This document shows positions 18,565 through 60,506 of a stretch of DNA of 64,000 nucleotides, piece after piece; within the stretch, counting starts at the first letter, position 1, and each line of letters opens with the position of its first letter. The notes under the pieces are model-generated. The model was not told where the DNA came from. It worked only from the letters and a program-made list of their open reading frames with translations, and did not search any database. The stretch is from Candidatus Saccharimonadales bacterium (GTDB taxonomy: Bacteria; Patescibacteriota; Saccharimonadia; Saccharimonadales; UBA10212), in assembly GCA_049521895.1 (NCBI GenBank), contig JBEKOJ010000001.1, positions 34,717-98,716 of the forward strand, given 5' to 3'. A program made the position numbers and the translations under genes.

Positions 18565-19998
18565 ATGAGTGTGGGCTTAGATGATATTGTCTCTCTGGCT
18601 AAACGAAGAGGGTTTATTTACCCCAGCAGTGAGATTTACGGCGGCCTGTCCGGCGTTTATGACTACGGCCCGCTGGGTGTTATGCTCAAGCACAATTTGG
18701 AAAACATCTGGTGGAGCAGTTTCGTTACCGGCTGGGACGATATGTATCCCATGGACGCCGCCATTTTGATGAATAAGAAGGTTTGGGAAGCCAGCGGCCA
18801 TGCCGCCGGTTTTAATGACCCACTGGTAGAGTGCGGCAACTGCCATAGTATCTTTCGGGCAGATAAAATCGATACTAAAAAATGTCCAACTTGCGGCAAA
18901 GAAGGCACGTTTGGGAAGCCCTTAGATTTTAATTTGATGTTCAGAACCCAAACAGGTCCGACCTGGGGATCTTTTGAACCAACAGAAAAATCACATCTCA
19001 CAGGGACGTTAACGGAAAAAGGTAAAGATGGCCGGCCGTTAAGAGAATTTACAATAAAAGAACTCGATCGAAATAATAGTGTAATGGTTTATGACAAACA
19101 AGGTCTAACCTATCTGCGGCCGGAAACGGCGCAGGGTATGTTTGTGAACTTTAAGAATGTTTTGGACACCGTCCAGCCGGACTTGCCATTTGGCCTAGCG
19201 CAAATCGGCAAGGGCTTTCGTAACGAAATTTCTCCGCGCGACTGGCTGTTTCGCATGCGGGAGTTCGAGATGATGGAGATAGAATATTTTATAAAGCCTA
19301 CCGAATGGGAAAAATACTTCGAGCAGTGGCGCGCCGGCATGATGACCTTCTTCAAAAAAGTCGGCTTGTCGGAAAGTATGGTACACGAAAAAGAAGTGCC
19401 AGAAGCTGACCGCGCGCATTATTCCCAGCGTACTATAGATTTTGAGTTTGATTTTCCGTTCGGTAAGGACGAGCTAGCCGGCTTGGCTTACAGGGGTGAT
19501 TATGATCTTAGCAACCACCAAAAAACTTCCGGCAAAGATTTGCGCTACCGGCCAAAAAACGGCGGCGAGCCGTTTTTGCCGCATGTCATAGAGCCGAGTT
19601 TTGGTGTGGAACGCTTAGTCTTGGCTTTGCTAGCTTCGGCTTACGCCGAGGATGAGCAGGGCGGGGAAAAGCGTACATATCTTAAGCTGAATGCCTCAGC
19701 CGCCCCTGTTAAAGTTGCTGTATTTCCGCTGCTCAAAAACAAGCCGGAACTGGCCAAAAAAGCCCGCGAAGTTTATAAAATGCTCAAAGACGAACTGGGT
19801 TCAGTAGAATTTGATGATAACGGCAACATCGGCAAGCGTTACCGCCGCCAAGACGAAATCGGCACCCCCTATTGCATAACTATTGATTTTGAAACGTTAG
19901 ATAACAACACTGTCACCCTCCGCAACCGCGACACCACCGAGCAGCAGCGGATAAAAGTCGAAGGCTCACTGCAAATGCTCAAATACTTCAAATGGTAA
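18565..19998 (+). CDS. glyQS: glycine--tRNA ligase (single-chain class II type)
   Basis: Sequence IVSLAKRRGFIYPSSEIYGG, class II motifs (FRNEISPR, GVERL) and a Cys4 insert CGNC...CPTCG. ATG follows an AGGAAGGAG SD. Confidence 0.9.
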   Translation: MSVGLDDIVSLAKRRGFIYPSSEIYGGLSGVYDYGPLGVMLKHNLENIWWSSFVTGWDDMYPMDAAILMNKKVWEASGHAAGFNDPLVECGNCHSIFRADKIDTKKCPTCGKEGTFGKPLDFNLMFRTQTGPTWGSFEPTEKSHLTGTLTEKGKDGRPLREFTIKELDRNNSVMVYDKQGLTYLRPETAQGMFVNFKNVLDTVQPDLPFGLAQIGKGFRNEISPRDWLFRMREFEMMEIEYFIKPTEWEKYFEQWRAGMMTFFKKVGLSESMVHEKEVPEADRAHYSQRTIDFEFDFPFGKDELAGLAYRGDYDLSNHQKTSGKDLRYRPKNGGEPFLPHVIEPSFGVERLVLALLASAYAEDEQGGEKRTYLKLNASAAPVKVAVFPLLKNKPELAKKAREVYKMLKDELGSVEFDDNGNIGKRYRRQDEIGTPYCITIDFETLDNNTVTLRNRDTTEQQRIKVEGSLQMLKYFKW

Positions 19999-20187: not shown

Positions 20188-20235
20188 TTGACTATTTGAA
20201 TCCGATTAGTTAATCTGTTAGATAGCTAATCTAAC
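20188..20235 (+). promoter_or_regulatory. promoter TTGACT-17-TAATCT with overlapping 7-N5-7 inverted repeat GTTAGAT/ATCTAAC
   Basis: -35 at 20188-20193, -10 at 20211-20216, IR at 20217-20223 and 20229-20235. Confidence 0.45.
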
Positions 20236-20251
20236 TATGGAGGTTAAAAAA

Positions 20252-20821
20252 ATGGCTGCAAAAATTATGGATACATTGTGGGATTTTATAAAATCGGCAG
20301 AACGCAGTAGGAAATATCCACCTAATACCGCCCTGGGTCTAAGAAATGCTCTTAAATTGTTTGAAACGGAGCTCAACGAAGAAGAAGCCCAGTCACTGGA
20401 TGTCTTTAAGGACCATTTGGAGCAAATTTACAGGGGTGTTTTTGAAAAAAATAAGAACCGGATGTCAGTGGGTTCTATCGAAACATACAAAACTCGAGTA
20501 AAAAGAGTACTGAGCGATTACGGCAAGTACGGCCTTGAACCATCTAAATTTGCCTCTTGGTCGCCCACAGTTAAGCGGGTAAGCACTCGGAAGAAGAAAA
20601 CTGAAGATACGAATTCGGTCGTTGGTCCTTCGGTTGGGGTTCCGGCAGATGAATCCCTTGCACCTCCACGGACGCTCCCCTCTGGTGTCATCGTTGTTTT
20701 TCCTAAATCGTTAGATAAACATGTTAGTTTCGGAGAGTTTGGGGATGTATTAAAAGCACTCGACACAAAGGCTAATAATCTGAAGGAAGATACTAATGGA
20801 CAAGGTGAAGACGAATCTTAG
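20252..20821 (+). CDS. hypothetical protein, partner of NYN gene 1 (alternative start 20237)
   Basis: GGAGG sits 9 nt before ATG 20252. Helical N-terminal half, acidic tail EDES. No confident domain. Confidence 0.4.
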   Translation: MAAKIMDTLWDFIKSAERSRKYPPNTALGLRNALKLFETELNEEEAQSLDVFKDHLEQIYRGVFEKNKNRMSVGSIETYKTRVKRVLSDYGKYGLEPSKFASWSPTVKRVSTRKKKTEDTNSVVGPSVGVPADESLAPPRTLPSGVIVVFPKSLDKHVSFGEFGDVLKALDTKANNLKEDTNGQGEDES

Positions 20822-21338
20822 GCCCAAAAGAGTATTTGCTTTCATTGATAGCCAGAACCTACATCTTGGCGTTCAGAGCGCTGGCTGGAAACTGGATTTT
20901 CGCAAATTCCGGCTATATCTTAAAAATAAATATCAAGTATCAAAAGCCTATCTTTTCATCGGCCAAGTTCCTGGGAACGAAGCTATGTACGCTCACCTAC
21001 AAGAAATGGGCAACATTCTAGTATTCAAGCCCACAATGCAGTACAAGAAGGCTGGAAAGATAAAAACGAAAGGCAACGTCGACGCCGAGGTCGTTCTTTA
21101 TGCCAGTGCGATAACATTTAGCGATTATGATCATGCCATCATCGTAAGTGGTGACGGAGATTTTCACTGCCTCATCGAATTCCTAGAAAATAAGGGCAAA
21201 TTACTAAAACTTATGACACCGAATGATCACTACTCGAGTTTATTGCGTCGTTTCTCATCCAAGATCGTGAGGGTTGATCAACTAAAGAGTGCGCTGGAAC
21301 TAAAAAAGACTGGCATCGGCGGTCGGTCGAAACCTTAG
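20796..21338 (+). CDS. NYN (LabA-like, PIN-related) domain protein, paralog 1
   Basis: Sequence AFIDSQNLHLGV ... KGNVDAEVV ... IIVSGDGDF. Overlaps the upstream ORF by 26 nt. Confidence 0.7.
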   Translation: MDKVKTNLRPKRVFAFIDSQNLHLGVQSAGWKLDFRKFRLYLKNKYQVSKAYLFIGQVPGNEAMYAHLQEMGNILVFKPTMQYKKAGKIKTKGNVDAEVVLYASAITFSDYDHAIIVSGDGDFHCLIEFLENKGKLLKLMTPNDHYSSLLRRFSSKIVRVDQLKSALELKKTGIGGRSKP

Positions 21339-21476
21339 GCCTATCCAGTCATCGTGATATCTAAATAATACACCAGTATTTTATTATTGTCAAACATATT
21401 TTTAACACTTTGTAAAGTCTGTGGAAAAGCATAAGTGTTTTAGAGGCAATGGGTAATACTTAACAACCTAAGCAAT

Positions 21477-21503
21477 CCGGATTTCCCAAAACCAGCGTAA
21501 AAT
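21477..21503 (+). promoter_or_regulatory. cassette junction motif, long form, copy 1
   Basis: Sequence ccggatttcccaaaaccagcgtaaaat. A separate TATAAT (21529-21534) sits 8 nt before ATG 21543. Confidence 0.6.
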
Positions 21504-21542
21504 AATTTTCAAAATGATTTAATTAGTATATAATATTGTTCT

Positions 21543-22169
21543 ATGTCGGTTGGTTATGATCCCTCTAGAGGGCCAGTGTATGAGCCTATTACAGACACCC
21601 AGAAGGCACGGATCGGTAGTGCGCTTACTGAGAGAATTGGTCAAGCTGTTATTGTTGATAAATTGGCTAATCGGAGTAGGAACTTCTGGATCTTTAGTTT
21701 TGAAGAACCAGAAGCCGTGATCGACTCAGAAGGCACAATCCCCCAGTATATGATTGTGGCGAGCGAAGGGGACATGGGTGCTACGAGGTGGTTTCGTGTG
21801 TTGGTAAAAAAGACGGGTCTAGGCTCTGGTACACCCAAGACAGAAGCCTATCGCGTGGAAATGTTAAAAAACACTCAATTTGCCGCGAAAGTCAGCAAGG
21901 CAACAGTAAGGCTGGATCATGTAGATGCGACCATTGAAGACAGCGGAGAAGATCAAGACGACCTGGAGGTTGGCTATGTAGTAGCTGCAGTGAGCGGCGG
22001 ACTAACTCCGGCTGCTCAGTCATACTCGGACGTTATGGAATCTGAGCTAGGGTCTCAATGGGCGCTAGGGGAATGTTCTAGCGACGAAGCTGAGCATTTT
22101 GCCGATTTGCTTATCAACTCCAAAGTCAGCGACTTGTCCTTACCAGACCTTGCGACAGGTAACTACTAG
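21543..22169 (+). CDS. hypothetical protein
   Basis: 208-aa ORF with an acidic C-terminal half. No recognisable domain. Confidence 0.4.
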   Translation: MSVGYDPSRGPVYEPITDTQKARIGSALTERIGQAVIVDKLANRSRNFWIFSFEEPEAVIDSEGTIPQYMIVASEGDMGATRWFRVLVKKTGLGSGTPKTEAYRVEMLKNTQFAAKVSKATVRLDHVDATIEDSGEDQDDLEVGYVVAAVSGGLTPAAQSYSDVMESELGSQWALGECSSDEAEHFADLLINSKVSDLSLPDLATGNY

Positions 22170-22178
22170 CCAAGGCAG

Positions 22179-22206
22179 CCCGGATTTCCCAAAACCAGCG
22201 TAAAAT
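22179..22206 (+). promoter_or_regulatory. cassette junction motif, long form, copy 2
   Basis: Sequence cccggatttcccaaaaccagcgtaaaat. TAAAAT ends 8 nt before ATG 22215. Confidence 0.6.
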
Positions 22207-22214
22207 ATAACCAA

Positions 22215-23006
22215 ATGTATAGGTCATTTACGGCTGCGGATTACAGAAAGCACTTTGGTCTGCCTACGGATTATTCCATCGATGGCATCCTTTGCGCAGG
22301 GTCAATTTACTCACACGAAGAAAACGGGCAGCTTAAAGCCGGTTTGAAGGCCATAAACCGACCCTATACTTTACATCAAATAGCCGTAACCGGCAAAAAC
22401 AACCAAGATTTCCTAAGATTTATTAAAGAACTTCATATTGGCAATAAAAAATTGTGGTATTTTTGCATTTACGGCGGTGCCTTACTGAGTGAATACTTGC
22501 ATTTTGGCTACCTTTTCGGAGCCAAGAAAACCATTCTAGTCGGCATGTGTGGGGGATTGAACCAACAGGCGAATGTCGGCGACATTATTATTCCGGATAA
22601 GGCTCATTCCGATGGCAGTACCGCGCATATGTACGACCGTGAGCACCAAGAGCTCCAACCAAGCGACAAATCGCTTTCTGCAGAATTAGAAAAAGTCTGC
22701 CAAGCGCACGGGCTTAACGTGCACCGCGGCAAGACCATGACTTGCCAAGCGATGATAGCTGAAACCTGGGAGGATGTGCAGACCTGGTCCAAAGCCGGAT
22801 ATTTAGGCGTGGAGATGGAGGCCGCTACAGTCTTTGCTGTTTCTAGTCATTTTGAAAAACCTGCCGCCGCCATTTTATCGGTTGCCGATAACTTGATTAA
22901 ACAAGAAACGAACTTGCATGAAAAATATCATGCCGCGGAGGAACACCGATTGGAAGTAAAACAGGCACAATATCAGATCGCAATCAAGATTTTGTTGAAC
23001 GACTAA
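22215..23006 (+). CDS. PNP/UDP-1 family nucleoside phosphorylase
   Basis: Sequence GVEMEAATVFAVS, as in DeoD/Udp-type enzymes. 263 aa. Confidence 0.65.
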   Translation: MYRSFTAADYRKHFGLPTDYSIDGILCAGSIYSHEENGQLKAGLKAINRPYTLHQIAVTGKNNQDFLRFIKELHIGNKKLWYFCIYGGALLSEYLHFGYLFGAKKTILVGMCGGLNQQANVGDIIIPDKAHSDGSTAHMYDREHQELQPSDKSLSAELEKVCQAHGLNVHRGKTMTCQAMIAETWEDVQTWSKAGYLGVEMEAATVFAVSSHFEKPAAAILSVADNLIKQETNLHEKYHAAEEHRLEVKQAQYQIAIKILLND

Positions 23007-23023
23007 GTCTCGCCAAACTTCGG

Positions 23024-23050
23024 CCCGAATTCCCAAAACCAGAGTAAAAT
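23024..23050 (+). promoter_or_regulatory. cassette junction motif, long form, copy 3
   Basis: Sequence cccgaattcccaaaaccagagtaaaat, 8 nt before ATG 23059. Confidence 0.6.
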
Positions 23051-23058
23051 AAGCCAAG

Positions 23059-23448
23059 ATGAGAGCTAATAAACTTAGCATTCAAATTGACTGGCCGGTC
23101 AAAGATGTTTTTAACTTCGTAACCGATCCAGCTAACACTCCAAAATGGATAGATCTTATAGCCAAGGAAGAAACAAACGAGTGGCCAGTGAAACTTGGCA
23201 CTATCTACAAAAATCAAGACAAGACGGGAGAGTGGAGAAATCTCGAGATGACAGAATTTGAAGAAAATAAAATGTTCGTTATGACCAACCGCGCGACTGG
23301 CTATCACGTGAGATATACACTGACACAGCTTGGTAATAACTCAACTGAGCTAGAGTATTACGAATGGATAGATAACGGTGGGTTCGAAGAACCTTTCACG
23401 ATACAACCCTTGGAAAAGCTAAAATCAATTCTTGAAAAACCAGCGTAA
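23059..23448 (+). CDS. SRPBCC (START/AHSA1-like) small ligand-binding protein
   Basis: 129 aa. The N-terminal pattern I..DWPVKDVFNFVTDPANTPKW is typical of SRPBCC proteins. Low-information call. Confidence 0.45.
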   Translation: MRANKLSIQIDWPVKDVFNFVTDPANTPKWIDLIAKEETNEWPVKLGTIYKNQDKTGEWRNLEMTEFEENKMFVMTNRATGYHVRYTLTQLGNNSTELEYYEWIDNGGFEEPFTIQPLEKLKSILEKPA

Positions 23449-23451
23449 AAT
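23435..23451 (+). promoter_or_regulatory. cassette junction motif, core form, copy 4 (contains the stop of 23059..23448)
   Basis: Sequence aaaaaccagcgtaaaat. TAAAAT ends 6 nt before ATG 23458. Confidence 0.6.
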
Positions 23452-23457
23452 AATTCT

Positions 23458-23856
23458 ATGAGTAAGACCTACTGCGTAGCTTCGGCGATCATTAAAAACA
23501 GCGACAAATACTTCATTGCTAAGCGGGCAGATAGCAAAAAATTCGCCCCGGGCCACTGGGAGTTTATAAGCGGTTTTATAGAAGACCACGAAGCCGCAGA
23601 AGATACAATTCTGAAAGAACTCCGCGAAGAAATTAATGCTGAGGGTAGGATTGAAAAAGTACTGGACATCTACCAATTTGGTGATGAACACGGCCGCTGG
23701 ATTGTCGTGCCATTTGTGATTAGCGTAAAAGACTCAAACATTCAAACCAACCCAGCCGAACACAGCGAGGGCAGGTGGGTCGCCTGGGAAGAGCTGGAAC
23801 AGATGCCGGGGGAAGATCTACAAGAACAAGTCAGAGCCCTAAAAACCCGTCTGTAA
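23458..23856 (+). CDS. NUDIX hydrolase
   Basis: Nudix box GFIEDHEAAEDTILKELREEINAEG. 132 aa. Confidence 0.8.
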   Translation: MSKTYCVASAIIKNSDKYFIAKRADSKKFAPGHWEFISGFIEDHEAAEDTILKELREEINAEGRIEKVLDIYQFGDEHGRWIVVPFVISVKDSNIQTNPAEHSEGRWVAWEELEQMPGEDLQEQVRALKTRL

Positions 23857-23860
23857 TCAG

Positions 23861-23886
23861 CCCGGATTTCCCAAAACCAGCGTAAA
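23861..23886 (+). promoter_or_regulatory. cassette junction motif, long form, copy 5, split by a MITE after ...GCGTAAA
   Basis: Sequence cccggatttcccaaaaccagcgtaaa | MITE | taaaat (23957-23962), then 8 nt to ATG 23971. Confidence 0.6.
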
Positions 23887-23956
23887 CCCGGTAGTGAGCT
23901 ATCGAGATTTAATAATGTATCCGCAAAGCGGATAGACTCGAAAGTCTACTACGGGG
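23887..23956. mobile_element. MITE copy C (70-bp internally deleted derivative), target duplication TAAA
   Basis: TIRs are cccggtagtgagctatcgag and ctcgaaagtctactacgggg. TAAA is present on both flanks. Confidence 0.65.
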
Positions 23957-23970
23957 TAAAATAAAACCAA

Positions 23971-24678
23971 ATGAAGGCTGAGGATGTAAAAGCAGCTCTG
24001 GATAAATACACCGATAAAAAAGCTGCAGAATTTGCCCAGCGATTTTTCAAAACCTATGATGGCGGTTATGCCCAGGGCGATAAGTTCCTGGGGCTTAAAG
24101 TTCCGGTAACTCGGGAAGTGTGTAAAAAATTCAAAAATTTATCACTGCCAGAAATAGAAAAATTGCTGGCTAGCCCGATTCACGAGCACCGACTAGCAGC
24201 ACTAATTATCATGACCGAACAGGCCAAGAAAGCGGACTCGGAACATAAAAAGCAGCTTTATGATTTCTACCTAAGTCATACCAACCGTGTAAACAACTGG
24301 GATTTAGTGGACACCAGCTGCCCGGAAATTGTCGGTAGCTATTTACTCGATAAAGACCATACACCCCTGCATAAGCTAGCCCGCTCCAAAAACCTATGGG
24401 AAAAACGGATCGCCATGGTTAGCACCCTAAACTTTATACGTGCCGGCCAGCTAGATGATACCTTTGCCGTAGCCGAAATTTTGCTGCACGACGACCACGA
24501 CTTAATACATAAAGCCGTGGGCTGGATGCTGCGTTGTGCCGGCGACGTGGACAGGGAAGCGCTACTGAAATTTTTAGACGTCCATGCTCACGAACTTCGC
24601 CGCACAGCGCTCCGTTATTCATTGGAGCATCTAACACCAGACCAAAAACTGCACTATATAAACCCAAAAACAGAGTAA
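23971..24678 (+). CDS. DNA alkylation repair protein (AlkD/AlkC-like HEAT-repeat glycosylase family)
   Basis: Sequence AEFAQRFFKT...GDKFLGLKVP ... HEHRLAALIIM ... NNWDLVD. 235 aa. Confidence 0.65.
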   Translation: MKAEDVKAALDKYTDKKAAEFAQRFFKTYDGGYAQGDKFLGLKVPVTREVCKKFKNLSLPEIEKLLASPIHEHRLAALIIMTEQAKKADSEHKKQLYDFYLSHTNRVNNWDLVDTSCPEIVGSYLLDKDHTPLHKLARSKNLWEKRIAMVSTLNFIRAGQLDDTFAVAEILLHDDHDLIHKAVGWMLRCAGDVDREALLKFLDVHAHELRRTALRYSLEHLTPDQKLHYINPKTE

Positions 24679-24681
24679 AAT
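24666..24681 (+). promoter_or_regulatory. cassette junction motif, core form, copy 6 (contains the stop of 23971..24678)
   Basis: Sequence aaaaacagagtaaaat, 6 nt before ATG 24688. Confidence 0.6.
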
Positions 24682-24687
24682 AGGGCT

Positions 24688-25248
24688 ATGAAAAACGCGA
24701 TTTTATTACACGGCACAGACGGTAATCCAGAACACAACTGGTTCCCATGGCTCAAGCGAAAACTGGAAGCCAAGGGCTATAAAGTCTGGGCGCCAGTATT
24801 GCCCGGAAACCATACCCCGAATAGAAAGATCTATAATGATTTTATTTTCTCGCAGGGCGGGGACTTAACGGATGGCATAGTCGTTGGCCATTCATCTGGA
24901 GCAGTGAGCGTACTGAATTTACTTATGGATAAACGGTGTCCAAAAGTGAATCTTGCAGTAATGGTCAGCGCTTGGAAGGGCGGGGTACCGCTCCGATACG
25001 AACCGGACAACCAGCAATTCAAAGATTTATTCCCGCCGGATGGTTTCGATTTTAAACTGATAAAGGAAAAAGCAGGGAAAATAGCTTTTCTTCATAGTGA
25101 TAACGACCCCTATTGCCCGCTTGAACAAGCAGAATACCTTGCTAAACAGCTACACGCACCACTTACTGTCATACATGAGGGCGATCACTTAGGCTCCAAT
25201 CTCACAGAATTACCAGAGCTTTGGAAGATAATAGAACCAGTCTTGTAG
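24688..25248 (+). CDS. YdeN/RBBP9-type alpha/beta serine hydrolase
   Basis: Sequence ILLHG...NWFPWLK ... VGHSSGA ... D ... H. 186 aa. Confidence 0.55.
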   Translation: MKNAILLHGTDGNPEHNWFPWLKRKLEAKGYKVWAPVLPGNHTPNRKIYNDFIFSQGGDLTDGIVVGHSSGAVSVLNLLMDKRCPKVNLAVMVSAWKGGVPLRYEPDNQQFKDLFPPDGFDFKLIKEKAGKIAFLHSDNDPYCPLEQAEYLAKQLHAPLTVIHEGDHLGSNLTELPELWKIIEPVL

Positions 25249-25256
25249 AGGGAATA

Positions 25257-25288
25257 CCCCATAGTAATATCTGCGATATACTACGGGG
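25257..25288. repeat. 32-bp hairpin with MITE-like termini (CCCCATAGTA ... TACTACGGGG), preceded by GGGAATAC
   Basis: Read directly from the sequence. No target duplication, so this may be a solo-TIR remnant or a terminator. Confidence 0.4.
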
Positions 25289-25354
25289 CAGGCTTAACGA
25301 GTCAAGCAACTGGCAGTATTGCTAATAGACAGTAAAGATTATATAATTTATCTT

Positions 25355-25936
25355 ATGACTAGATCCGGAGCAGAAATATCACCCGTCGAATCCAGTGAGG
25401 AGCTGGCACAAGCGTGGAAAGAATATGGATTCGATCCGCCTGGAGGCGTAGATGCTTGGGCGGAAGCCGTAGAAGCTGATCGAAATGGCGTTTTAGTCGC
25501 GCGACTTTCTGCGATGGCTGTTGGTTTTGTGACCGTGAAGTGGTCCGGACCTTCTGTGCGCGAGCCTGAAGTTACGGAGGCGCTTACTACTGAATTTCCG
25601 GATGAGCAACCAATCCCAACCATCTATTCGCTTAACGTCCAGCAGCAACATCGAAGGAAGGGGATAGGCTGGGACCTGATGGTTGCTACCGAACACGCCA
25701 TAATAGATAGGCCTGGCACTGTCCTGCGTTCTGCTCTGAGTGTGCAAACTAATAACAAGGATGCCCTGCCACTTTATATATCTTTAGGCTACCAAATCGT
25801 GCCATATAGGGGTCGAAAAATGGTGGTTCTGGATCGCCCTGAGTATGACGAGCAAGGTCAACTAGTTCGTAGCACTAAACCAGTTTTTATTATGACCAAA
25901 GATTTATCTGACCTTCGCAAAAACAGAGTAAAATAG
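25355..25936 (+). CDS. GNAT family N-acetyltransferase
   Basis: Acetyl-CoA motif QQHRRKGIGWDLM. TATAAT (25342-25347) sits 7 nt before ATG 25355. The track start at 25319 is TTG. Confidence 0.65.
   Translation: MTRSGAEISPVESSEELAQAWKEYGFDPPGGVDAWAEAVEADRNGVLVARLSAMAVGFVTVKWSGPSVREPEVTEALTTEFPDEQPIPTIYSLNVQQQHRRKGIGWDLMVATEHAIIDRPGTVLRSALSVQTNNKDALPLYISLGYQIVPYRGRKMVVLDRPEYDEQGQLVRSTKPVFIMTKDLSDLRKNRVK
25919..25934 (+). promoter_or_regulatory. cassette junction motif, core form, copy 7
   Basis: Sequence aaaaacagagtaaaat, 9 nt before ATG 25944. The GNAT ORF reads through it in another frame. Confidence 0.6.
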
Positions 25937-25943
25937 GTCCAGC

Positions 25944-26660
25944 ATGAGCCCTGGAACTACAAGACCGCGCAACGAAGTTTTCGATAGGGAATTAGTGCGC
26001 AGCATCTTGGACAAAATGGGCAGGGACGACAGATATACCACGCGCGAAATGGCAACCCTGACTTTTGAACAACTCTATTCCCAGCTTAATCAGCCGGAAA
26101 TTGAAGTAGTAAAACAGCTGCTTGCACTTAGTCCTGAAAAACTTGGATTTCTAGGCCCGTTTGTGAGCCTAGAAGGGCCACCCAAAAATCTGGTCAAGCT
26201 AGAGGGCCAGGTATTTGAAAGGGATGGTAAAAAAGTTACCATTGCCAACCAATATTTGCCGCAACCTGTCTGGCAGGCTTTTTTAGAAATGCAAGAAGCT
26301 ACCAAACAGGATATAGGCAGCAAACTGATGGTAGAGTCGGGCTACCGCTCGCCGGCCCATCAATCTATAACTTTTCTAACGTATTTAGAAAAATCAGATT
26401 TTGATATTAAATATGTAGTTTCTGGAGTGGCTCTACCTGGCTATAGCCAGCATGGCGATCCGGTTAACACAGCCGTGGATGTTATAAATCAAGACGGCAT
26501 ACCAACAGATGAAAAGCCGCAACTTTTTGCCAATACAAACGAGTACCAGTGGCTGATTAAGAACGCCAAACAATTTGATTTCTATCTGTCTTACCCAGAG
26601 GGCAATGAATTTGATGTTAAGTTTGAACCTTGGCACTGGCAATACAGAAAAACAGAGTAA
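25944..26660 (+). CDS. VanY / peptidase M15B-type D-alanyl-D-alanine carboxypeptidase
   Basis: Sequence SGYRSPAHQ ... SQHGDPVNTAVDV ... EPWHWQY (zinc ligands of H-D-H type). Confidence 0.7.
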   Translation: MSPGTTRPRNEVFDRELVRSILDKMGRDDRYTTREMATLTFEQLYSQLNQPEIEVVKQLLALSPEKLGFLGPFVSLEGPPKNLVKLEGQVFERDGKKVTIANQYLPQPVWQAFLEMQEATKQDIGSKLMVESGYRSPAHQSITFLTYLEKSDFDIKYVVSGVALPGYSQHGDPVNTAVDVINQDGIPTDEKPQLFANTNEYQWLIKNAKQFDFYLSYPEGNEFDVKFEPWHWQYRKTE

Positions 26661-26663
26661 AAT
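26648..26663 (+). promoter_or_regulatory. cassette junction motif, core form, copy 8 (contains the stop of 25944..26660)
   Basis: Sequence aaaaacagagtaaaat. The next gene has a 31-nt leader with an AAGGAG SD. Confidence 0.55.
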
Positions 26664-26694
26664 AGATCGAGAACATAACTTAAGGAGTAGGTAT

Positions 26695-27036
26695 ATGGCT
26701 GGCGGCCGGGAAGAACAAGTCCTTGAAGGAACAAACGGGAGGCTATTCCGGTGGCCCGATGGTAAGCCCCCCGAAATAACAACATTGCTTGTGGACGGAA
26801 CCGTAGATTCACTAATAGCTACAGGCATATTCCGGTCGCTGGGTTTTGGATCGGTTATAGAGCGGATGAAGACTAACCCGAATTTCCCCAGGCAGTGCCC
26901 TGAGCTGTGGATGGTACATCCACCGCAAGAGGAAGGAGGGCAAGGGGTTGTCGAGGTGGCCCGGGGGCTACGCGAGATCCACATCTCATTCGTCAGTAAA
27001 TTAGTGGAAGTGCAGCCAGTACCAGAGGTACACTAG
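26695..27036 (+). CDS. hypothetical protein (113 aa)
   Basis: ATG follows AAGGAG. The in-frame upstream part of track ORF 26575 overlaps the VanY-like gene. Confidence 0.35.
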   Translation: MAGGREEQVLEGTNGRLFRWPDGKPPEITTLLVDGTVDSLIATGIFRSLGFGSVIERMKTNPNFPRQCPELWMVHPPQEEGGQGVVEVARGLREIHISFVSKLVEVQPVPEVH

Positions 27037-27044
27037 AGTAGGTA

Positions 27045-27070
27045 AGGAATACTTAACTCGTTAAGTAATT
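27045..27070. repeat. GGGAATAC-hairpin repeat, copy 2
   Basis: Sequence aggaatacttaactcgttaagtaatt, abutting ATG 27072. Confidence 0.55.
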
Positions 27071-27071
27071 T

Positions 27072-27542
27072 ATGAAAAATTACATCCCACCCGAAAAACG
27101 ATTCAAGCTGATTCTCTCTGTCTATTTAATTTTAATCAAAGATGGGAAAACTTTATTATTACGGCGTCAAAACACGGGCTACGAAGATGGCAACTATGGC
27201 CTTGTGGCAGGACACGCCGATGGTAATGAAGTGGCTAGGGAAGCGCTGTGCAGGGAGGTGTTGGAAGAATCAGGCCTGAGATTTAAGCCTAAAGATTTCC
27301 GGTTCGTCCACTTAATGCACCGCAAGGCCAATGATGAACGGGTGGACGTTTTCTTTACTGCCGACAAATGGCAAGGCGAACCAAAAATCATGGAGCCAGA
27401 AAAGTGCGACGATCTCAGCTGGTTTCCGCTAGACAATTTGCCGAGCAACACCATTCCGTATATTCGCCAAGCTATAGAATGCTTTCAAAAAGGTATTTAT
27501 TACTCCGAATTCGGCTGGAATGAACGGGCGGGGAATACTTAA
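27072..27542 (+). CDS. NUDIX hydrolase (second, unrelated copy)
   Basis: Nudix box GHADGNEVAREALCREVLEESGL. 156 aa. Confidence 0.8.
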   Translation: MKNYIPPEKRFKLILSVYLILIKDGKTLLLRRQNTGYEDGNYGLVAGHADGNEVAREALCREVLEESGLRFKPKDFRFVHLMHRKANDERVDVFFTADKWQGEPKIMEPEKCDDLSWFPLDNLPSNTIPYIRQAIECFQKGIYYSEFGWNERAGNT

Positions 27543-27557
27543 CTTGTTAAGTAATTT
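27531..27557. repeat. GGGAATAC-hairpin repeat, copy 3 (supplies codons GNT + stop of the Nudix gene)
   Basis: Sequence gggaatacttaacttgttaagtaattt. Confidence 0.55.
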
Positions 27558-27575
27558 ATAAAAATAACTTGATTT

Positions 27576-27609
27576 AAAAAAAGGCGAGGGGGCGGCGTTG
27601 CCGCCCCCT
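27576..27609 (-). terminator. GC-rich hairpin + T-run terminator for the high-GC minus-strand gene
   Basis: Minus strand reads agggggcggcaacgccgccccctcgccttttttt. Confidence 0.5.
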
Positions 27610-27624
27610 GTTGTTCGCGCGCTG

Positions 27625-28158
27625 CTACTTGAGCGTGGCGATGACCTGAGGCGTAAGCCTGAGGACGACGCCGCGCAGATCGGTTTCGATCAGCTGGCCC
27701 ATGGTCTTGAACCCCATGGCCGTGACCGCCTGGTACTTGCCTCCCGAGTTCGGGCTGCGCCAGTCCAGAACGCCGTCGTCGCGGTAGTCCTTGAAGTAGA
27801 CGACGCGGTTGTAGCTGAAGACGGCACTGGCCCTCTTTGCGTCCGCGATGCGGACGTTTTCGGCCGGTACGACGATCTTGATCGTCTGACCGCAGCCGTT
27901 GCGAGCGTTGAGCGTGATCATGAAGGCGGTGTTGTCGCTGGCCTTCGTAACCGCGCAGACTGCGTGCGGCATGTTCGGGTTCCAGCCGCGAACCTGCAGG
28001 AAGTTCTGGACCGTGACTTCGCGGTTGAAGTCGTGGTCGGCCCACGGGTTCCAGTTGCTCGGCCAGATCGCGTTGATGCCGATCGCAATCGTGGCGATGA
28101 TCGCCGCGCAAATCACGACCCACACTGCGTCGAATGCGAAATCGGTAAGCCTCCGCAT
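27625..28158 (-). CDS. membrane-anchored hypothetical protein on a high-GC foreign segment
   Basis: 177 aa with N-terminal TM AVWVVICAAIIATIAIGI. AAGGA SD, own terminator, GC-rich third codon positions. The other four overlapping ORFs here are high-GC artefacts. Confidence 0.55.
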   Translation of the reverse strand: MRRLTDFAFDAVWVVICAAIIATIAIGINAIWPSNWNPWADHDFNREVTVQNFLQVRGWNPNMPHAVCAVTKASDNTAFMITLNARNGCGQTIKIVVPAENVRIADAKRASAVFSYNRVVYFKDYRDDGVLDWRSPNSGGKYQAVTAMGFKTMGQLIETDLRGVVLRLTPQVIATLK

Positions 28159-28270
28159 TTCTTCACCATCCTTCCCCGAGTTATCGGAGTAGAAGTTGAA
28201 ATCTCAGCGCGAACTGTAATATTCTACAATATTAACGCATAAATAGCAATACCATTCTCAAATATGATAA

Positions 28271-28296
28271 CTCGGATTTCTAAAACAGGGTAAAAT
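28271..28296 (+). promoter_or_regulatory. cassette junction motif, diverged long form, copy 9
   Basis: Sequence ctcggatttctaaaacagggtaaaat, 8 nt before ATG 28305. Confidence 0.55.
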
Positions 28297-28304
28297 AAGG
28301 CAGC

Positions 28305-28850
28305 ATGAAGAAACTAGGGATTTTATCTGGAACTTTTGATCCGGTGCACAAGGGGCACGTTGATTTCGCGCTTGAGTCCATAAAAGTTTGCGGGCTAGAG
28401 CGGGTATATTTGCTGCCAGAGCGGTCACCCCGCCGAAAAAAAAATCTAACCGATTTCGCCCATCGTCTTGAGATGTTAAAACTAGCCGCAGGGTCCCACA
28501 AGCAATTAGAAGTTTTGCAGGTATCCGAGCCCCGATTTACAAACGCTGTCACTTTGCCAAAGCTCCGCTCGCAATTTGCCCCGGACCAGCTGGTGTTTTT
28601 AATGGGTTCTGATGTGGCAGCCACCTTAGGTGGTTGGCCCGGGCTGAAGCCGTTAATAGTTGGTTTGCGCAACAATGACGATAGGCGCGAGTTGGAAAAG
28701 CTTCTAAGTAAGCTAAGAGTTTTGCGCCAGACGACATTTATAACCAGTCCGCGTGCCCAGCTCGCTTCCAGCCAACTGCGGAACAGCCAGCTAAAAGACC
28801 TCGATCCATTGGTGCTTGCTTACATTAAGCGCCACAAACTTTATAGCTGA
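28305..28850 (+). CDS. nadD: nicotinate/nicotinamide-mononucleotide adenylyltransferase (NadD-like cytidylyltransferase fold)
   Basis: Sequence GTFDPVHKGH (HxGH) and C-terminal SSxxxR-like LASSQLRN. 181 aa. Confidence 0.7.
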   Translation: MKKLGILSGTFDPVHKGHVDFALESIKVCGLERVYLLPERSPRRKKNLTDFAHRLEMLKLAAGSHKQLEVLQVSEPRFTNAVTLPKLRSQFAPDQLVFLMGSDVAATLGGWPGLKPLIVGLRNNDDRRELEKLLSKLRVLRQTTFITSPRAQLASSQLRNSQLKDLDPLVLAYIKRHKLYS

Positions 28851-28899
28851 GCGCGGTATCCTACTGGTGTAAAATGGAAAGATAAAGGAAGGATTTCTT

Positions 28900-29520
28900 A
28901 TGAAGTTAACCAGATATTATCAAAGTTGTTTATTGATTGAAGAGGGCAGGGTGCGGATTTTGATTGACCCCAGCGGCCACGAAGCCGGAAATTTTGACAA
29001 GTTTGGCAAGCTGGACGGCGTGCTATACACCCACGAGCACACGGATCACTTCGACCCGGATTTGGCACAAAAATTTGCCGGCAGCGGTGTAGCAGTTTAC
29101 GCTAACGCTAGCACTGCCAAACAAATGAAATTGCAGCCGACTGTCATTTCCGACAATCAGGAATTTGACATTAAGGGCCTAAAAATCCAGGCCAGGGAAC
29201 TGCCGCATTGCTTGATGGTTAGCGGCGACGCTGGCCCACAAAACACCGGCTATTTAATTGCTGGGCGGCTGTTCCACCCGGGCGACGGTACCAACCTGGC
29301 GGGCCTGAGCACTGAAATCCTAGCTGTACCCATCACCGGCCCGGATATCTCCTTAAAAGACGCTTGCGACTTTACAAAACAAGTCTCAGCCAAGATTGCC
29401 GTGCCAATACACTACGATTTTATCGGCACCAAGCCGGAAATTTTTGAAATGTTTGCTAAAAACTCCCAGTTGCCATTCGAGGTGAAGGTGCTGGGGCCGG
29501 GCGAAAGCACCGAGCTATAA
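28900..29520 (+). CDS. MBL-fold metallo-hydrolase
   Basis: Sequence YTHEHTDHFD (HxHxDH). 206 aa. AAGGAAGG SD. Confidence 0.7.
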   Translation: MKLTRYYQSCLLIEEGRVRILIDPSGHEAGNFDKFGKLDGVLYTHEHTDHFDPDLAQKFAGSGVAVYANASTAKQMKLQPTVISDNQEFDIKGLKIQARELPHCLMVSGDAGPQNTGYLIAGRLFHPGDGTNLAGLSTEILAVPITGPDISLKDACDFTKQVSAKIAVPIHYDFIGTKPEIFEMFAKNSQLPFEVKVLGPGESTEL

Positions 29521-29636
29521 AAACATAAGCTTTACCATAAAAACAGCTCGTTGTAAAAGTAACTAGCAAAATATTATTGACTAGCTCTCAGCTAAAGTGC
29601 CATATTATTCTCAGCTAAGTAATTGGAGGCACGGAA

Positions 29637-30215
29637 ATGAAGGGCATGGGACGCTGGCTGGTGCTGCTCAGGGGCATGGCGGTTATTGGTGCGGTAGGAG
29701 TTATAACAACTGGCGCTAGTTTTGCGGCCCTGCAGAGCCAGAACGCTTCGCTGACTGGTAATATTATCAATAGCGGTACCGCCGACCTTAGGATTAGCAA
29801 AGACGGCACTACTTTCTATTCGCCGTCAACCACCGGTTATACTTTTGACGGCGTCGTGCCGGGCGGAGCGGCTGCTCCAGTAGGCGGTAATTTGTTTTAT
29901 CTTAAAAATTACGGCAGCGCCAATCTGGCCATCAAAGTCGGCATCAACGCCGCGCCATCCAACGTCAACAATGTGGATCTGAGCAAAGTTTATTTTCAGT
30001 TTACGAGGGTGGATAGCAGTGGCAGCCCCGTTAGCTTATCGCTAAAATCCTTAGTGGATAGTTATGCCGCCGGAGGCACGCCACTGAGTGACACCGTAAA
30101 CGCTGGCTCAACCGCGACTTACAGCGTTAAAGCTTCTATGGATATGGATGCCTTTGCCGGCTCGAGCGCCAGCCTTACCGGCATCAACCTGTCCTTTATT
30201 GGCACCGGCGCTTAA
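29637..30215 (+). CDS. TasA/camelysin-like secreted protein with SipW-type signal peptide
   Basis: N-terminus ...AVIGAVGVITTGASFAALQSQNASLTGNIINSGTADLRIS resembles the TasA-type A-x-F...GTLDL signal region. GGAGG SD. Followed by a signal peptidase gene. Confidence 0.55.
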   Translation: MKGMGRWLVLLRGMAVIGAVGVITTGASFAALQSQNASLTGNIINSGTADLRISKDGTTFYSPSTTGYTFDGVVPGGAAAPVGGNLFYLKNYGSANLAIKVGINAAPSNVNNVDLSKVYFQFTRVDSSGSPVSLSLKSLVDSYAAGGTPLSDTVNAGSTATYSVKASMDMDAFAGSSASLTGINLSFIGTGA

Positions 30216-30235
30216 ACGCAGGAGAGGAAAACAGC

Positions 30236-30760
30236 TTGTTTAAAAATCTGGCGCACCACCTTTCTATTATCACCTTGGGGCTTTTTACCATTGTCGGAAT
30301 TATTGGCTTGGTGCGTTGGCAGGGCAGTGGTATCCGTTTATACAGCGTGAAAGATAGTTCTATGGCGCCGCTGCTGCTGCCGGGAGATTTGGTGTTGGCT
30401 GCCAGCCGGCAGACTGCCCAGCCAGGAGACATAGTCAGCTATCTTAGCCCGCAAGACCAACACACAATTATTGCCCGCAGATTAGTGGCGGTTGATCCAT
30501 CTAAAGGTATTATTACCACTAAAGCCGATAACTTGGTACAGGCCGACCCGCCGGTGATAACCGATGCGGTGCTGGGCAAAACGCTTAAAGCCGTGCCGCT
30601 GTTAGGATATTTGCTGGATACGCTGCGCCGCCCTGCGGGCCTGGCTGTCTTGGTTTATGTACCGGCTTTTGTGATCATTCGCTCCGAGGTCAAACGTCTA
30701 AGCCGGCAATTTGGCCGCCGCCCGTACAATCTCAAATTACTGACCTCTGTTACGAGCTAA
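30236..30760 (+). CDS. signal peptidase I, SipW/ER (S26B)-like
   Basis: N-terminal TM and catalytic-Ser motif SSMAPLLLPGDLV, then GDIVSY...H. TTG start after an AGGAGAGG SD. C-terminal TM. Confidence 0.6.
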   Translation: MFKNLAHHLSIITLGLFTIVGIIGLVRWQGSGIRLYSVKDSSMAPLLLPGDLVLAASRQTAQPGDIVSYLSPQDQHTIIARRLVAVDPSKGIITTKADNLVQADPPVITDAVLGKTLKAVPLLGYLLDTLRRPAGLAVLVYVPAFVIIRSEVKRLSRQFGRRPYNLKLLTSVTS

Positions 30761-30780
30761 TCTAAACTTCAATTTTTTAT

Positions 30781-30796
30781 CAAAAACCAGTATAAT
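30781..30796 (+). promoter_or_regulatory. junction-motif variant CAAAAACCAGTATAAT
   Basis: TATAAT ends 10 nt before ATG 30807. Confidence 0.5.
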
Positions 30797-30806
30797 AACC
30801 CCTGTT

Positions 30807-31034
30807 ATGAATAATGTAAATTCAGGCGAACATTTACCCCCAACGCCTAGCGGCGATGAGCTTGATCAAGAGAGGGGAATCCTCGAAAATCCACAAGGTG
30901 GCCCGGTGGCAATCACCTATATGAAGGGCAACGAAGTTATTCACTATAGATTCATTAGCCGAGAAGAGTTTGATAGATGGCACGAAACTCACCCCGGACA
31001 AGTAATTGAAGAAATAGATGCCGAAGAATCCTAA
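30807..31034 (+). CDS. small hypothetical protein, partner of NYN gene 2
   Basis: 75 aa with acidic tail AEES. Overlaps the NYN start by 17 nt. Confidence 0.4.
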   Translation: MNNVNSGEHLPPTPSGDELDQERGILENPQGGPVAITYMKGNEVIHYRFISREEFDRWHETHPGQVIEEIDAEES

Positions 31035-31572
31035 GAAACCGCGGGCTTACGCCTTTATCGACAGTCAAAATCTCAACCTGGGCGTACAAAAAATGGGCTG
31101 GAAAATGGACTGGCGTAAATTCCGCCAATATTTGCAGCACGAGTACAACGTAGAAAAAGCCTACATGTTCATTGGCTATGTGGCCGACAACATCGCCATG
31201 TATGAGCAGCTGCACGACATGGGCTACTTGATAGTTCTGAAACGCACGCTGGAAGTCAAAGCCCAGGAAGGCGAAAAAACCGATGACGGCGAGCCCCAGA
31301 AACCAACAGTGAAGGGGAATATTGACGCCGAGCTGGTGCTGTGGGCCATGAAAGAGCTGCCCAATTACGATAAGGCTATTATCGTATCTGGCGACGGCGA
31401 CTTTTTTGCCCTAGTGGAATACCTGGAGCAGAAGCAAAAGCTGCTGCACTTAATGGTGCCAAACTGGCAATATTCATCACTTCTCAAAGAGTACGAAAAA
31501 TACACCGTGCGGATTGATAAACTACGCCGCCAACTGTCTTACCACGACCGCCGCTTCAAAAAGAATACTTAA
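31018..31572 (+). CDS. NYN (LabA-like) domain protein, paralog 2
   Basis: Sequence AFIDSQNLNLGV ... KGNIDAELV ... IIVSGDGDF. Collinear with 20796..21338. Confidence 0.7.
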   Translation: MPKNPKKPRAYAFIDSQNLNLGVQKMGWKMDWRKFRQYLQHEYNVEKAYMFIGYVADNIAMYEQLHDMGYLIVLKRTLEVKAQEGEKTDDGEPQKPTVKGNIDAELVLWAMKELPNYDKAIIVSGDGDFFALVEYLEQKQKLLHLMVPNWQYSSLLKEYEKYTVRIDKLRRQLSYHDRRFKKNT

Positions 31573-34361: not shown

Positions 34362-34718
34362 ATGGGAGATTACTTCGAACGCAGACTCGATGACAAACGG
34401 CGGTTATCCATACCGGCTGAGCTTCGAGAGGAATTTGCGTCTGGGGTAGTTCTAACTATTGGCTTCAAGAATTATTTGCACCTCTATCCAAAAGCCGTTT
34501 GGGAAGAGCTGGTAGAGCCTCAGCTCCAGGGGAATATCCTAGATGAGGCCACCGCCGACCTAAATGTCCGCTTCAGGATGGGGAAGACCGATAGCGAATT
34601 AGATACCAAGCAGGGGCGCATACAGATCCCGCAGCATCTTTTAGACCACGCGGGCATCAACCGAGAGGTTGTAGCTATACGCGCCGGACGCTACTGGAGG
34701 TTATCCCGCAAAGAATAA
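34362..34718 (+). CDS. mraZ: transcriptional regulator MraZ (short form)
   Basis: Two SpoVT/AbrB-like DxxxR-type segments (LDDKRRLSIPAELR and DTKQGRIQIPQHL). First gene of the dcw cluster. Confidence 0.75.
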   Translation: MGDYFERRLDDKRRLSIPAELREEFASGVVLTIGFKNYLHLYPKAVWEELVEPQLQGNILDEATADLNVRFRMGKTDSELDTKQGRIQIPQHLLDHAGINREVVAIRAGRYWRLSRKE

Positions 34719-60431: not shown

Positions 60432-60506
60432 GGTCCCATCGTCTAGCGGTTAGGACGCCAGGTTCTCATCCTGGCAACAGGGGTTCGATTCCCCTTGGGA
60501 TCACCA
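60432..60506 (+). tRNA. tRNA-Glu (anticodon CUC), CCA encoded
   Basis: Cloverleaf read by hand: acceptor GGTCCCA/TGGGATC, anticodon stem CCAGG/CCTGG with loop TTCTCAT, T-arm GGGGTTCGATTCCCC. Confidence 0.9.

Follow-up and report, generated by a model that had tools for sequence, protein, structure and literature searches.

A variable gene slot downstream of glyS in a Saccharimonadales bacterium, with two NYN nuclease genes and a candidate P1 partner cassette

Gene order in the slot between glyS and NYN2

We analyzed a 64,000-nucleotide (nt) stretch of DNA from Candidatus Saccharimonadales bacterium (assembly GCA_049521895.1, contig JBEKOJ010000001.1, positions 34,717 to 98,716), here called the window, focusing on two genes for predicted NYN nucleases and on the genes upstream of them. 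All coordinates are those of the window, and features lie on the + strand unless stated otherwise. The conserved left anchor of the region is glyS (18565..19998), encoding GlyRS. It is followed by the gene for P1 (20252..20821), a 189-amino-acid (aa) protein of an unannotated family with a helical N-domain joined by a disordered linker to a C-terminal strand-helix module (C-module) that carries an acidic tail. Next come NYN1 (20796..21338), encoding a 180-aa predicted LabA-like NYN nuclease that ends in ...LELKKTGIGGRSKP, and a variable cargo of approximately 17 genes, mostly on the + strand (21339..30806). P2, a 75-aa orphan open reading frame (ORF; 30807..31034), overlaps the start of NYN2 (31018..31572; 184 aa), the right anchor of the interval. 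Further to the right, mraZ (34362..34718) marks the start of the conserved dcw cluster, as placed by tblastn synteny; glyS was assigned from Pfam families in public gene calls. The ORF spanning 20237-20821 (194 aa) overlaps NYN1 by 26 nt, and the P2 ORF (30807-31034) overlaps NYN2 by 17 nt, in agreement with the initial annotation of this DNA. We place the P1 start at the ATG at 20252 rather than at 20237, because GGAGG (20239) lies 8 nt upstream and public gene calls give a protein of 189 aa.

With NYN2 as the query, we retrieved 25 loci from GTDB genomes, all from Saccharibacteria/Saccharimonadales, and mapped their gene order by tblastn. The order response regulator-RecO-GlyRS-(variable)-NYN2-(variable)-GH1-MraZ-RsmH was kept in approximately 20 loci, and the response regulator-RecO-GlyRS block was syntenic in 20 or more Saccharibacteria loci. 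The distance from GlyRS to NYN2 was 39 nt in one relative (L009), 0.7 to 6 kb elsewhere, and 11 kb in the window, the largest value. Cargo genes differed in every relative, with a few (a Ser hydrolase, an MBL gene, and an h192 and S26 pair) recurring at other positions. Because gene content and length differ between conserved anchors, we regard the glyS-to-NYN2 interval as a hypervariable slot. The variability of the glyS-to-mraZ interval proposed in the initial annotation was thus borne out, with 0.04 to 11 kb of different content before NYN2 across approximately 20 loci.

Ten contigs of the same species from different samples carried an identical island order (GlyRS-P1-NYN1-h208-PNP...). Island GC content was 0.40 to 0.46, a slight drop from approximately 0.49 in the flanks. 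Pfam matches revealed no recombinase or integrase family among the island ORFs, no tRNA was detected near the island (the window's only tRNA, tRNA-Glu, lies at 60432, and Rfam found nothing else), and a search for direct repeats flanking the island found none. The slot resembles genomic islands and integron cassette arrays in that its content varies between conserved anchors and a repeated element occurs at most gene boundaries in the left half of the island. In contrast to those systems, the slot in the window has no integrase, tRNA target, or attC-like structure, its repeat resembles a leaderless-type promoter, and its GC content is only slightly lower.

The initial annotation had described the island as bracketed by the two NYN paralogs, which might act as direct-repeat recombination substrates for gain or loss of the intervening 10-kb segment as a unit. 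Both genes do lie at the two edges in the same orientation, and interval length varies among relatives. However, the DNA of NYN1 and NYN2 is 58% identical and no exact match between the two exceeds 9 nt, values much too low for homologous recombination. The 10 same-species contigs all keep the undeleted order, with no deletion junctions among them; relatives with a short interval carry an ordinary NYN2 rather than a chimera; and integrase, tRNA, and flanking direct repeats are lacking. We therefore consider this recombination mechanism highly improbable. NYN genes are indeed present at both ends, but the bracketing looks incidental: NYN2 is the right anchor of the slot, and NYN1 occurs within the glyS-NYN2 interval, at its left edge, only in the window and in one other locus (L001).

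Two further arrangements were noted among the relatives. In one Saccharibacteria genome (L026), the orientation of NYN2 is reversed with respect to the flanking genes on either side, glyS and GH1-mraZ, which indicates a local inversion inside the slot. The short interval of L007 was considered as a product of deletion between NYN1 and NYN2 and was rejected, since its NYN gene is of the ordinary NYN2 type and its P1 is followed by unrelated small ORFs.

The two NYN proteins and their families

Both proteins matched the Pfam family NYN (PF01936) well above its gathering score of 24.2, with E values of 3.9e-14 and 2.7e-14 and scores of 53.8 and 54.3 bits for NYN1 and NYN2, respectively. The two proteins are 52% identical (E 7e-60), and the motifs first quoted for them are common to both. 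The closest solved structure was PDB 2qip (E 2.3e-7). In a 16-sequence family alignment, D18, D96, and D122 were invariant and D120 was present in at least 90% of the sequences. NYN1 and NYN2 carry all four Asp residues, so that the catalytic acidic residues, whose possible loss had been raised in the initial annotation, are intact.

Like other LabA-like NYN proteins (PF01936, NYN.COG1432, including VPA0982 of 2qip and a CRISPR-associated NYN of Bacteroides fragilis), the window proteins exceed the Pfam threshold, carry the four acidic residues, and consist of a single domain of approximately 180 aa, as in 2qip. In contrast to these relatives, the proteins of the candidate phyla radiation (CPR) form their own very conserved subfamilies: a pan-CPR subfamily with a ...GRSKP tail, to which NYN1 belongs, and a Saccharimonadales type, to which NYN2 belongs, with a charged insert after KPT and the C terminus ...LSYHDRR. 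The window NYN proteins also lack an OST-HTH fusion and a CRISPR or clock context, and the recurrent linkage to glyS described below was previously undescribed.

The two subfamilies differ in their distribution. At least 7975 homologs of the NYN1 type were detected; among the matches listed, identity was 63 to 86%, and these matches include proteins named from Berkelbacteria, Parcubacteria, Pacebacteria, and Gottesmanbacteria. NYN1 of the window is 86% identical to that of L001 (L001:10001-10528), whereas the corresponding identities were 48% for GlyRS, 49% for RecO, and 63% for RsmH. Genomes with a closer GlyRS (61 to 64% identical) have no NYN1 in the interval, and NYN1 is 76% identical to Berkelbacteria proteins. 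Such high identity, given a GlyRS that is only 48% identical, points to either exceptional constraint on NYN1 or its lateral spread across the CPR. NYN2 orthologs, in contrast, were syntenic in the 25 GTDB Saccharibacteria loci and in L001, L007, and L117 (28 in total). Genes of both types can directly follow glyS: in three separate genomes, the glyS stop codon lies within a 4-nt overlap with the NYN gene, at L001:10001 and L036:2698 (NYN1 type) and at L009:9977 (NYN2 type). This recurrent overlap fits a translation- or RNA-related role.

What is known of the wider family is compatible with such a role. A bacterial stand-alone NYN protein is a Mn-dependent, non-specific single-stranded RNase (bioRxiv 10.1101/2024.04.08.588522), and a survey of the PIN superfamily listed the function of NYN.COG1432 as unknown, with gene neighborhoods pointing to tRNA or rRNA processing (PMC5499597). 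By extension from the B. fragilis NYN protein, the window NYN proteins would be active as RNases. Our literature search for NYN together with Patescibacteria or Saccharibacteria found nothing relevant. In PADLOC, the NYN proteins gave weak, domain-level matches to the NYN and HEC-09 models (E ~1e-6), and no defined system was matched.

Separately, in eight metagenomic loci (L058, L063, L068, L069, L072, L073, L078, and L088), a NYN1-type gene starts 1 to 2 nt after a gene for a helicase of approximately 1060 aa with HKD(PLD) and SNF2 domains. This helicase matches the PADLOC candidate C3a139 and DrmD-like models (E 1.9e-46), and these loci may represent a NYN-containing defense operon.

Upstream genes and the P1 family

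The initial annotation had read the two ends of the island as paralogous two-gene modules, with similarity reaching upstream of the NYN starts into the acidic tails of the partner ORFs (...GEDES* in P1 and ...DAEES* in P2). Both tails fall inside the overlaps. At NYN1, the codons ATG GAC AAG GTG AAG ACG AAT are read in the upstream frame as GGT GAA GAC GAA TCT TAG; at NYN2, ATG CCG AAG AAT CCT AAG is read as GAT GCC GAA GAA TCC TAA. The same frame effect on the tails was observed in L003 and L004. Because the tails arise from Lys-rich NYN N-terminal codons read one base out of frame, we rejected them as a sign of homology between the partners, and direct comparison showed P1 and P2 to be unrelated to each other.

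P2 itself appears to be a lineage-specific small gene. Its homologs comprised a single database cluster, P2 itself, with no match in Pfam, NCBIfam, PADLOC, or PHROGs, and its single-sequence AlphaFold2 model (predicted local distance difference test [pLDDT] score, 59) was uninformative. Its codon score was 0.376, close to the mean for genes (0.383) and far from that for out-of-frame sequence (-0.51), and a TATAAT box (30791..30796) read from the sequence lies 10 nt before its ATG, in a leaderless-type layout with the same geometry as at other island genes. Given this gene-like codon usage and the nearby TATAAT box, P2 is probably a genuine orphan gene, and nothing demonstrably ties it to NYN2. 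P2 was absent upstream of the NYN2 orthologs in 24 of 24 loci. The genes found there were unrelated and did not overlap NYN2, ending +3 to +212 nt before it; otherwise the upstream gene was glyS. They include genes for an HAD hydrolase, membrane proteins, a flavodoxin-like protein, a phosphoribosyltransferase, glyoxalases, an HhH-GPD glycosylase, helicases, and a DAP decarboxylase. The right-hand module of the initial annotation therefore dissolves into an orphan gene beside a NYN gene with no constant neighbor.

For the NYN1 type, we sampled 80 metagenomic loci plus look-up loci, approximately 66 of which were evaluable. A P1-type partner was found in two of these (L079 and L003). Among the remainder, no other conserved small partner was detected, and the small upstream ORFs shared nothing with one another. 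In approximately 36 of the 66 loci, an upstream ORF on the same strand ended within 20 nt of the NYN gene or overlapped it; these ORFs belong to unrelated families, including GlyRS, GyrB, the HKD-SNF2 helicase, and giant surface proteins. In L001, the 86%-identical NYN1 ortholog lies directly behind glyS with no partner.

P1, in contrast to P2, belongs to a previously undescribed family. A word-index search returned 16 homologs, and an exhaustive hidden Markov model (HMM) search recovered 370 clusters (50% identity), of which 136 had E <= 1e-30; among the best 150 listed of the 370 clusters, nearly every protein was 140 to 212 aa in length. The codon score of P1 was 0.29. In the AlphaFold2 model, the N-domain (residues 1-105) was helical with pLDDT of >90, followed by a disordered linker and, at residues ~135-189, the short strand-plus-helix C-module. 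P1 had no match in Pfam, NCBIfam, PADLOC, or PHROGs. Foldseek searches with its fold gave best E values of 0.64 against PDB and 0.38 against BFVD viral models, with integrase N-domains appearing only far down both lists, and the P1 profile matched nothing below E 0.18 among PDB sequences. Examination of both partners by HMM and structure prediction, as the initial annotation had advised, thus gave a confident helical domain of no recognized fold for P1 and little for P2. Sub-threshold matches to Phage_int_SAM were seen in 4 of 16 family members and then in 2 of 5 more (best E, 9.3e-5), and comparison of the P1 profile with the Escherichia coli XerD N-domain by hhalign was not significant (E 0.077). 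Since these matches fall short of significance, DNA binding by the N-domain is possible as a lead only. No P1 relatives were detected in phage GenBank records or in two IMG/VR scans. The distribution of P1 is sporadic: it was absent from the 25 GTDB Saccharibacteria loci, and where it does occur in Saccharibacteria it sits at the same glyS hot spot at which many genes come and go.

Upstream of P1, promoter-like boxes TTGACT-17-TAATCT with a weak -10 can be read from the sequence (20188..20216), and a perfect 7-N5-7 palindrome, GTTAGAT/ATCTAAC (20217..20235), lies between the -10 box and the Shine-Dalgarno sequence as a candidate operator. The boxes were not called by a consensus promoter scan. 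The same two boxes with the same spacing were found upstream of the P1 homolog in L004, and TTGACA-17-TATTAT was found in L117. A perfect 7-nt inverted repeat arose in 2.4% of shuffles of the 42-nt region and in 4.5% of 441 background gene-upstream regions. Perfect inverted repeats of at least 6 nt at positions -50 to -8 were present in 5 of 10 P1 loci, versus 10.2% of the 441 background genes (binomial p 0.0018). These features are compatible with P1 autoregulation through the inverted repeat. The promoter and palindrome claimed in the initial annotation are thus upheld for the palindrome and in part for the promoter, whereas the suggested autoregulation would follow only by extension from the sequence.

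Several of these properties recall type II toxin-antitoxin (addiction) modules such as VapBC, and the initial annotation had pointed to a layout of this type at both ends of the island; in such an interpretation, NYN would be the toxin and P1 or P2 the antitoxin. The predicted PIN-like RNase has an intact active site and is overlapped by the partner gene before it, a promoter-proximal inverted repeat precedes P1, and P1 is predicted to have an antitoxin-like shape, in which a disordered linker joins a folded N-domain to a C-terminal module. The C-module recurs before NYN in L079 and L003, and the weak PADLOC matches of NYN point in the same direction. However, a consistent cognate partner was not found across homologs: NYN2 orthologs are partnerless in all 24 loci, a P1-type partner accompanies only 2 of the approximately 66 NYN1-type genes, whose other small upstream ORFs have nothing in common, and the near-identical NYN1 of L001 stands behind glyS alone. 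P2 is an orphan unrelated to P1. P1, at 189 aa, is larger than the supposed toxin, has no RHH, AbrB, or HTH match, and precedes nucleases of different folds, all in contrast to VapBC. Because nearly identical NYN genes exist without a partner, a classic toxin-antitoxin function is unlikely, and we judge this explanation improbable for the locus as a whole.

The nuclease genes that follow P1

We examined 13 P1 contexts out of the 370 clusters, counting 12 independent loci. In 8 of these 12, P1 or its C-module precedes a gene of a nuclease family, and in all eight the P1 tail contains the start region of the gene that follows. Loci of this kind include sites away from glyS and outside Saccharibacteria (L004, L079, L116, L118, and L003). 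The nuclease gene itself is not constant. NYN follows P1 in the window, in L079 (8-nt overlap), and in L003, where a 61-aa ORF corresponding to the P1 C-module alone overlaps NYN by 11 nt (HMM E 2e-12 among 18,182 ORFs). The closest P1 homolog, at 63% identity, comes from L130-133, where the gene order is GlyRS-P1-RVT_3 and the overlap measures 32 nt, and L113-115 have the same order with a 26-nt overlap. In L004, P1 and RVT_3 overlap by 26 nt elsewhere in the genome and adjoin a Type ISP restriction-modification gene; restriction-modification genes adjoin some P1 copies. In L116 and L118, P1 is followed by DUF3800, which is reported to be RNase H2-like and to act as an effector of retron type VII (PMC7736814). 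The C-module also occurs with another N-terminal part: P0136 in L117 carries a P1-type C-module on a different N-domain, just after glyS. The junction DNA ATGnAnAAGnTGAAGA is common to the NYN and RVT_3 versions at 13 of 16 positions, which places the swap point inside the P1 tail, the segment that carries the start region of the next gene.

These contexts must be weighed against the possibility that there is no functional module at all, with P1 and P2 being unrelated upstream genes and the overlaps reflecting genome compaction and a NYN gene that rides downstream in any operon. In favor of such an explanation, approximately 36 of 66 NYN1-type genes lie closely behind or overlap ORFs of unrelated families, P2 is an orphan, and the Saccharibacteria P1 genes occupy a glyS hot spot with heavy gene turnover. 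It does not readily account for a nuclease-family gene behind P1 or the C-module in 8 of 12 independent loci, some away from glyS and outside Saccharibacteria, or for the placement of the downstream start region inside the P1 tail at each of them. We therefore consider it a possible but doubtful account. The left pair as a two-gene unit with an operator-like inverted repeat, as first annotated, is probably real, given the P1-nuclease contexts and the enrichment of inverted repeats.

The explanation that we favor, with moderate confidence, combines a hypervariable slot, NYN2 as its stand-alone anchor, an additional NYN1, and a P1 partner cassette with interchangeable RNase genes. NYN2 would be a conserved LabA-type ribonuclease acting without a partner, most likely in housekeeping RNA processing. 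NYN1 is a second NYN gene from the different, unusually conserved pan-CPR subfamily, and only this lineage and one other have it at the left edge. The 3' end of the P1 gene holds the start codon and the ribosome-binding site for the next nuclease gene, whatever its type: an RNase HI-like RVT_3 or RNase H2-like DUF3800 gene in other genomes and NYN1 here. P1 would be transcribed from its own promoter, which it probably represses through the inverted repeat; translation of the nuclease would be coupled to that of P1; and the P1 C-module would then bind the nuclease, either restraining or directing it. P1 and its RNase may therefore be best described as a modular regulator/adaptor-plus-RNase cassette of an accessory (defense- or addiction-like) kind, not a classic toxin-antitoxin pair.

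Several observations weigh against this explanation. The P1-nuclease interaction is proposed from gene context, and a specific neutralizing contact is not obvious, given that NYN and RVT_3 differ in fold and yet follow the same Saccharibacteria-type C-module. Tight coupling is common throughout the NYN1 family and in compact CPR genomes generally, as about half of the NYN1-type genes sit within 20 nt of an upstream gene. In 4 of the 12 independent loci, P1 is followed by nothing more than a small ORF or a methylase, and the 13 contexts examined are few relative to 370 clusters. The inverted-repeat sequences upstream of P1 differ between loci, with L004 keeping 5 of 7 palindrome positions, and the assignment of DNA binding to the N-domain draws on sub-threshold matches only.

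More tentatively, the P1 C-module (...LPLRPGxKAIIxVPxDLTxEEAxKIxxYI... plus the acidic tail) could represent a new class of partner, inhibitor or adaptor, for metal-dependent RNase-fold nucleases in CPR. Such a module would occur fused to different N-domains or alone, with the nuclease gene (NYN, RNase HI-like, or DUF3800) exchanged at a conserved junction inside the partner's 3' end, in an as yet undescribed family of addiction or defense cassettes. Modular defense systems with swappable nucleases, such as retron type VII with DUF3800 and the PADLOC NYN and HEC-09 candidates, offer a parallel: P1 is constant while the effectors vary (NYN, RNase H-like, and DUF3800), its distribution is sporadic, and some copies adjoin restriction-modification genes. 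However, the P1 cassette has no reverse transcriptase, noncoding RNA, NTPase, or sensor domain, PADLOC matches are weak, domain level, and absent for P1, and no phage link was found.

Repeated elements in the island and wider significance

The cargo genes, as classified with Pfam, include h208, PNP_UDP, SRPBCC, NUDIX, AlkD-like, Ser hydrolase, GNAT, VanY, a 113-aa ORF, a second NUDIX, a 177-aa gene on the minus strand, NMNAT-like, MBL, an exported 192-aa protein, and an S26-like peptidase. Nine copies of a repeat of 17 to 38 nt, (GGATTTCCC)AAAAC(C)AG(C/A)GTAAAATA, lie at gene boundaries between 21476 and 28298, all on the + strand, with core starts at 21488, 22191, 23035, 23436, 23873, 24667, 25920, 26649, and 28282. 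Seven pattern matches were found versus 0.11 expected, and the rest of the window contained none. In six of the copies (22191, 23035, 23436, 24667, 25920, and 28282), TAAAAT lies 6 to 9 nt before the ATG of the next gene, encoding PNP, SRPBCC, NUDIX, Ser hydrolase, VanY, and NMNAT, respectively. The AlkD gene (ATG at 23971) is preceded by a GTAAAATA box of its own at 23956; the copy at 23873, which lies 83 nt before this box, lacks TAAAAT. Four copies also encode the last codons and stop of the preceding gene, and the repeat was found directly after P1-RVT_3 in another species (L114:1952-1968 and L115:1899-1915). The position of TAAAAT 6 to 9 nt before start codons suggests that this repeated AAAACCAGCGTAAAATA element constitutes leaderless-type promoters or marks a shared regulon.

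Other features of the cargo were observed near the second NUDIX gene (27072-27542). It is flanked exactly by a 33-nt direct repeat (27046-27078 and 27532-27564; 94% identical), with a partial third copy at 21451-21476. The repeat holds the palindrome TACTTAAC-N2-GTTAAGTA, and the pair could represent a cassette boundary, the scar of a duplication, or a terminator or operator. Between 27539 and 28242, a locally GC-rich segment, long ORFs overlap on both strands, and public gene calls give the + strand ORF of 214 aa. The minus-strand ORF of 177 aa (27625-28158), with an N-terminal hydrophobic segment and a weak ORF_12_N match, seems the more plausible protein of the two. This segment also contains a strong hairpin at 27587-27609.

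CPR/Patescibacteria genomes are tiny. To our knowledge, they encode few recognizable RNases and almost no characterized regulatory or defense modules. A NYN protein shared across CPR phyla at 65 to 86% identity, together with a second type fixed syntenically in Saccharimonadales, points to an important, unstudied RNA-processing enzyme. The slot downstream of glyS, with its promoter-like repeat, offers a defined site for studying the gain and expression of accessory genes in reduced genomes. If P1 does partner interchangeable nucleases, it would provide a tractable two-gene system of approximately 1.1 kb, testable in E. coli, that could show how such nucleases are controlled or targeted.

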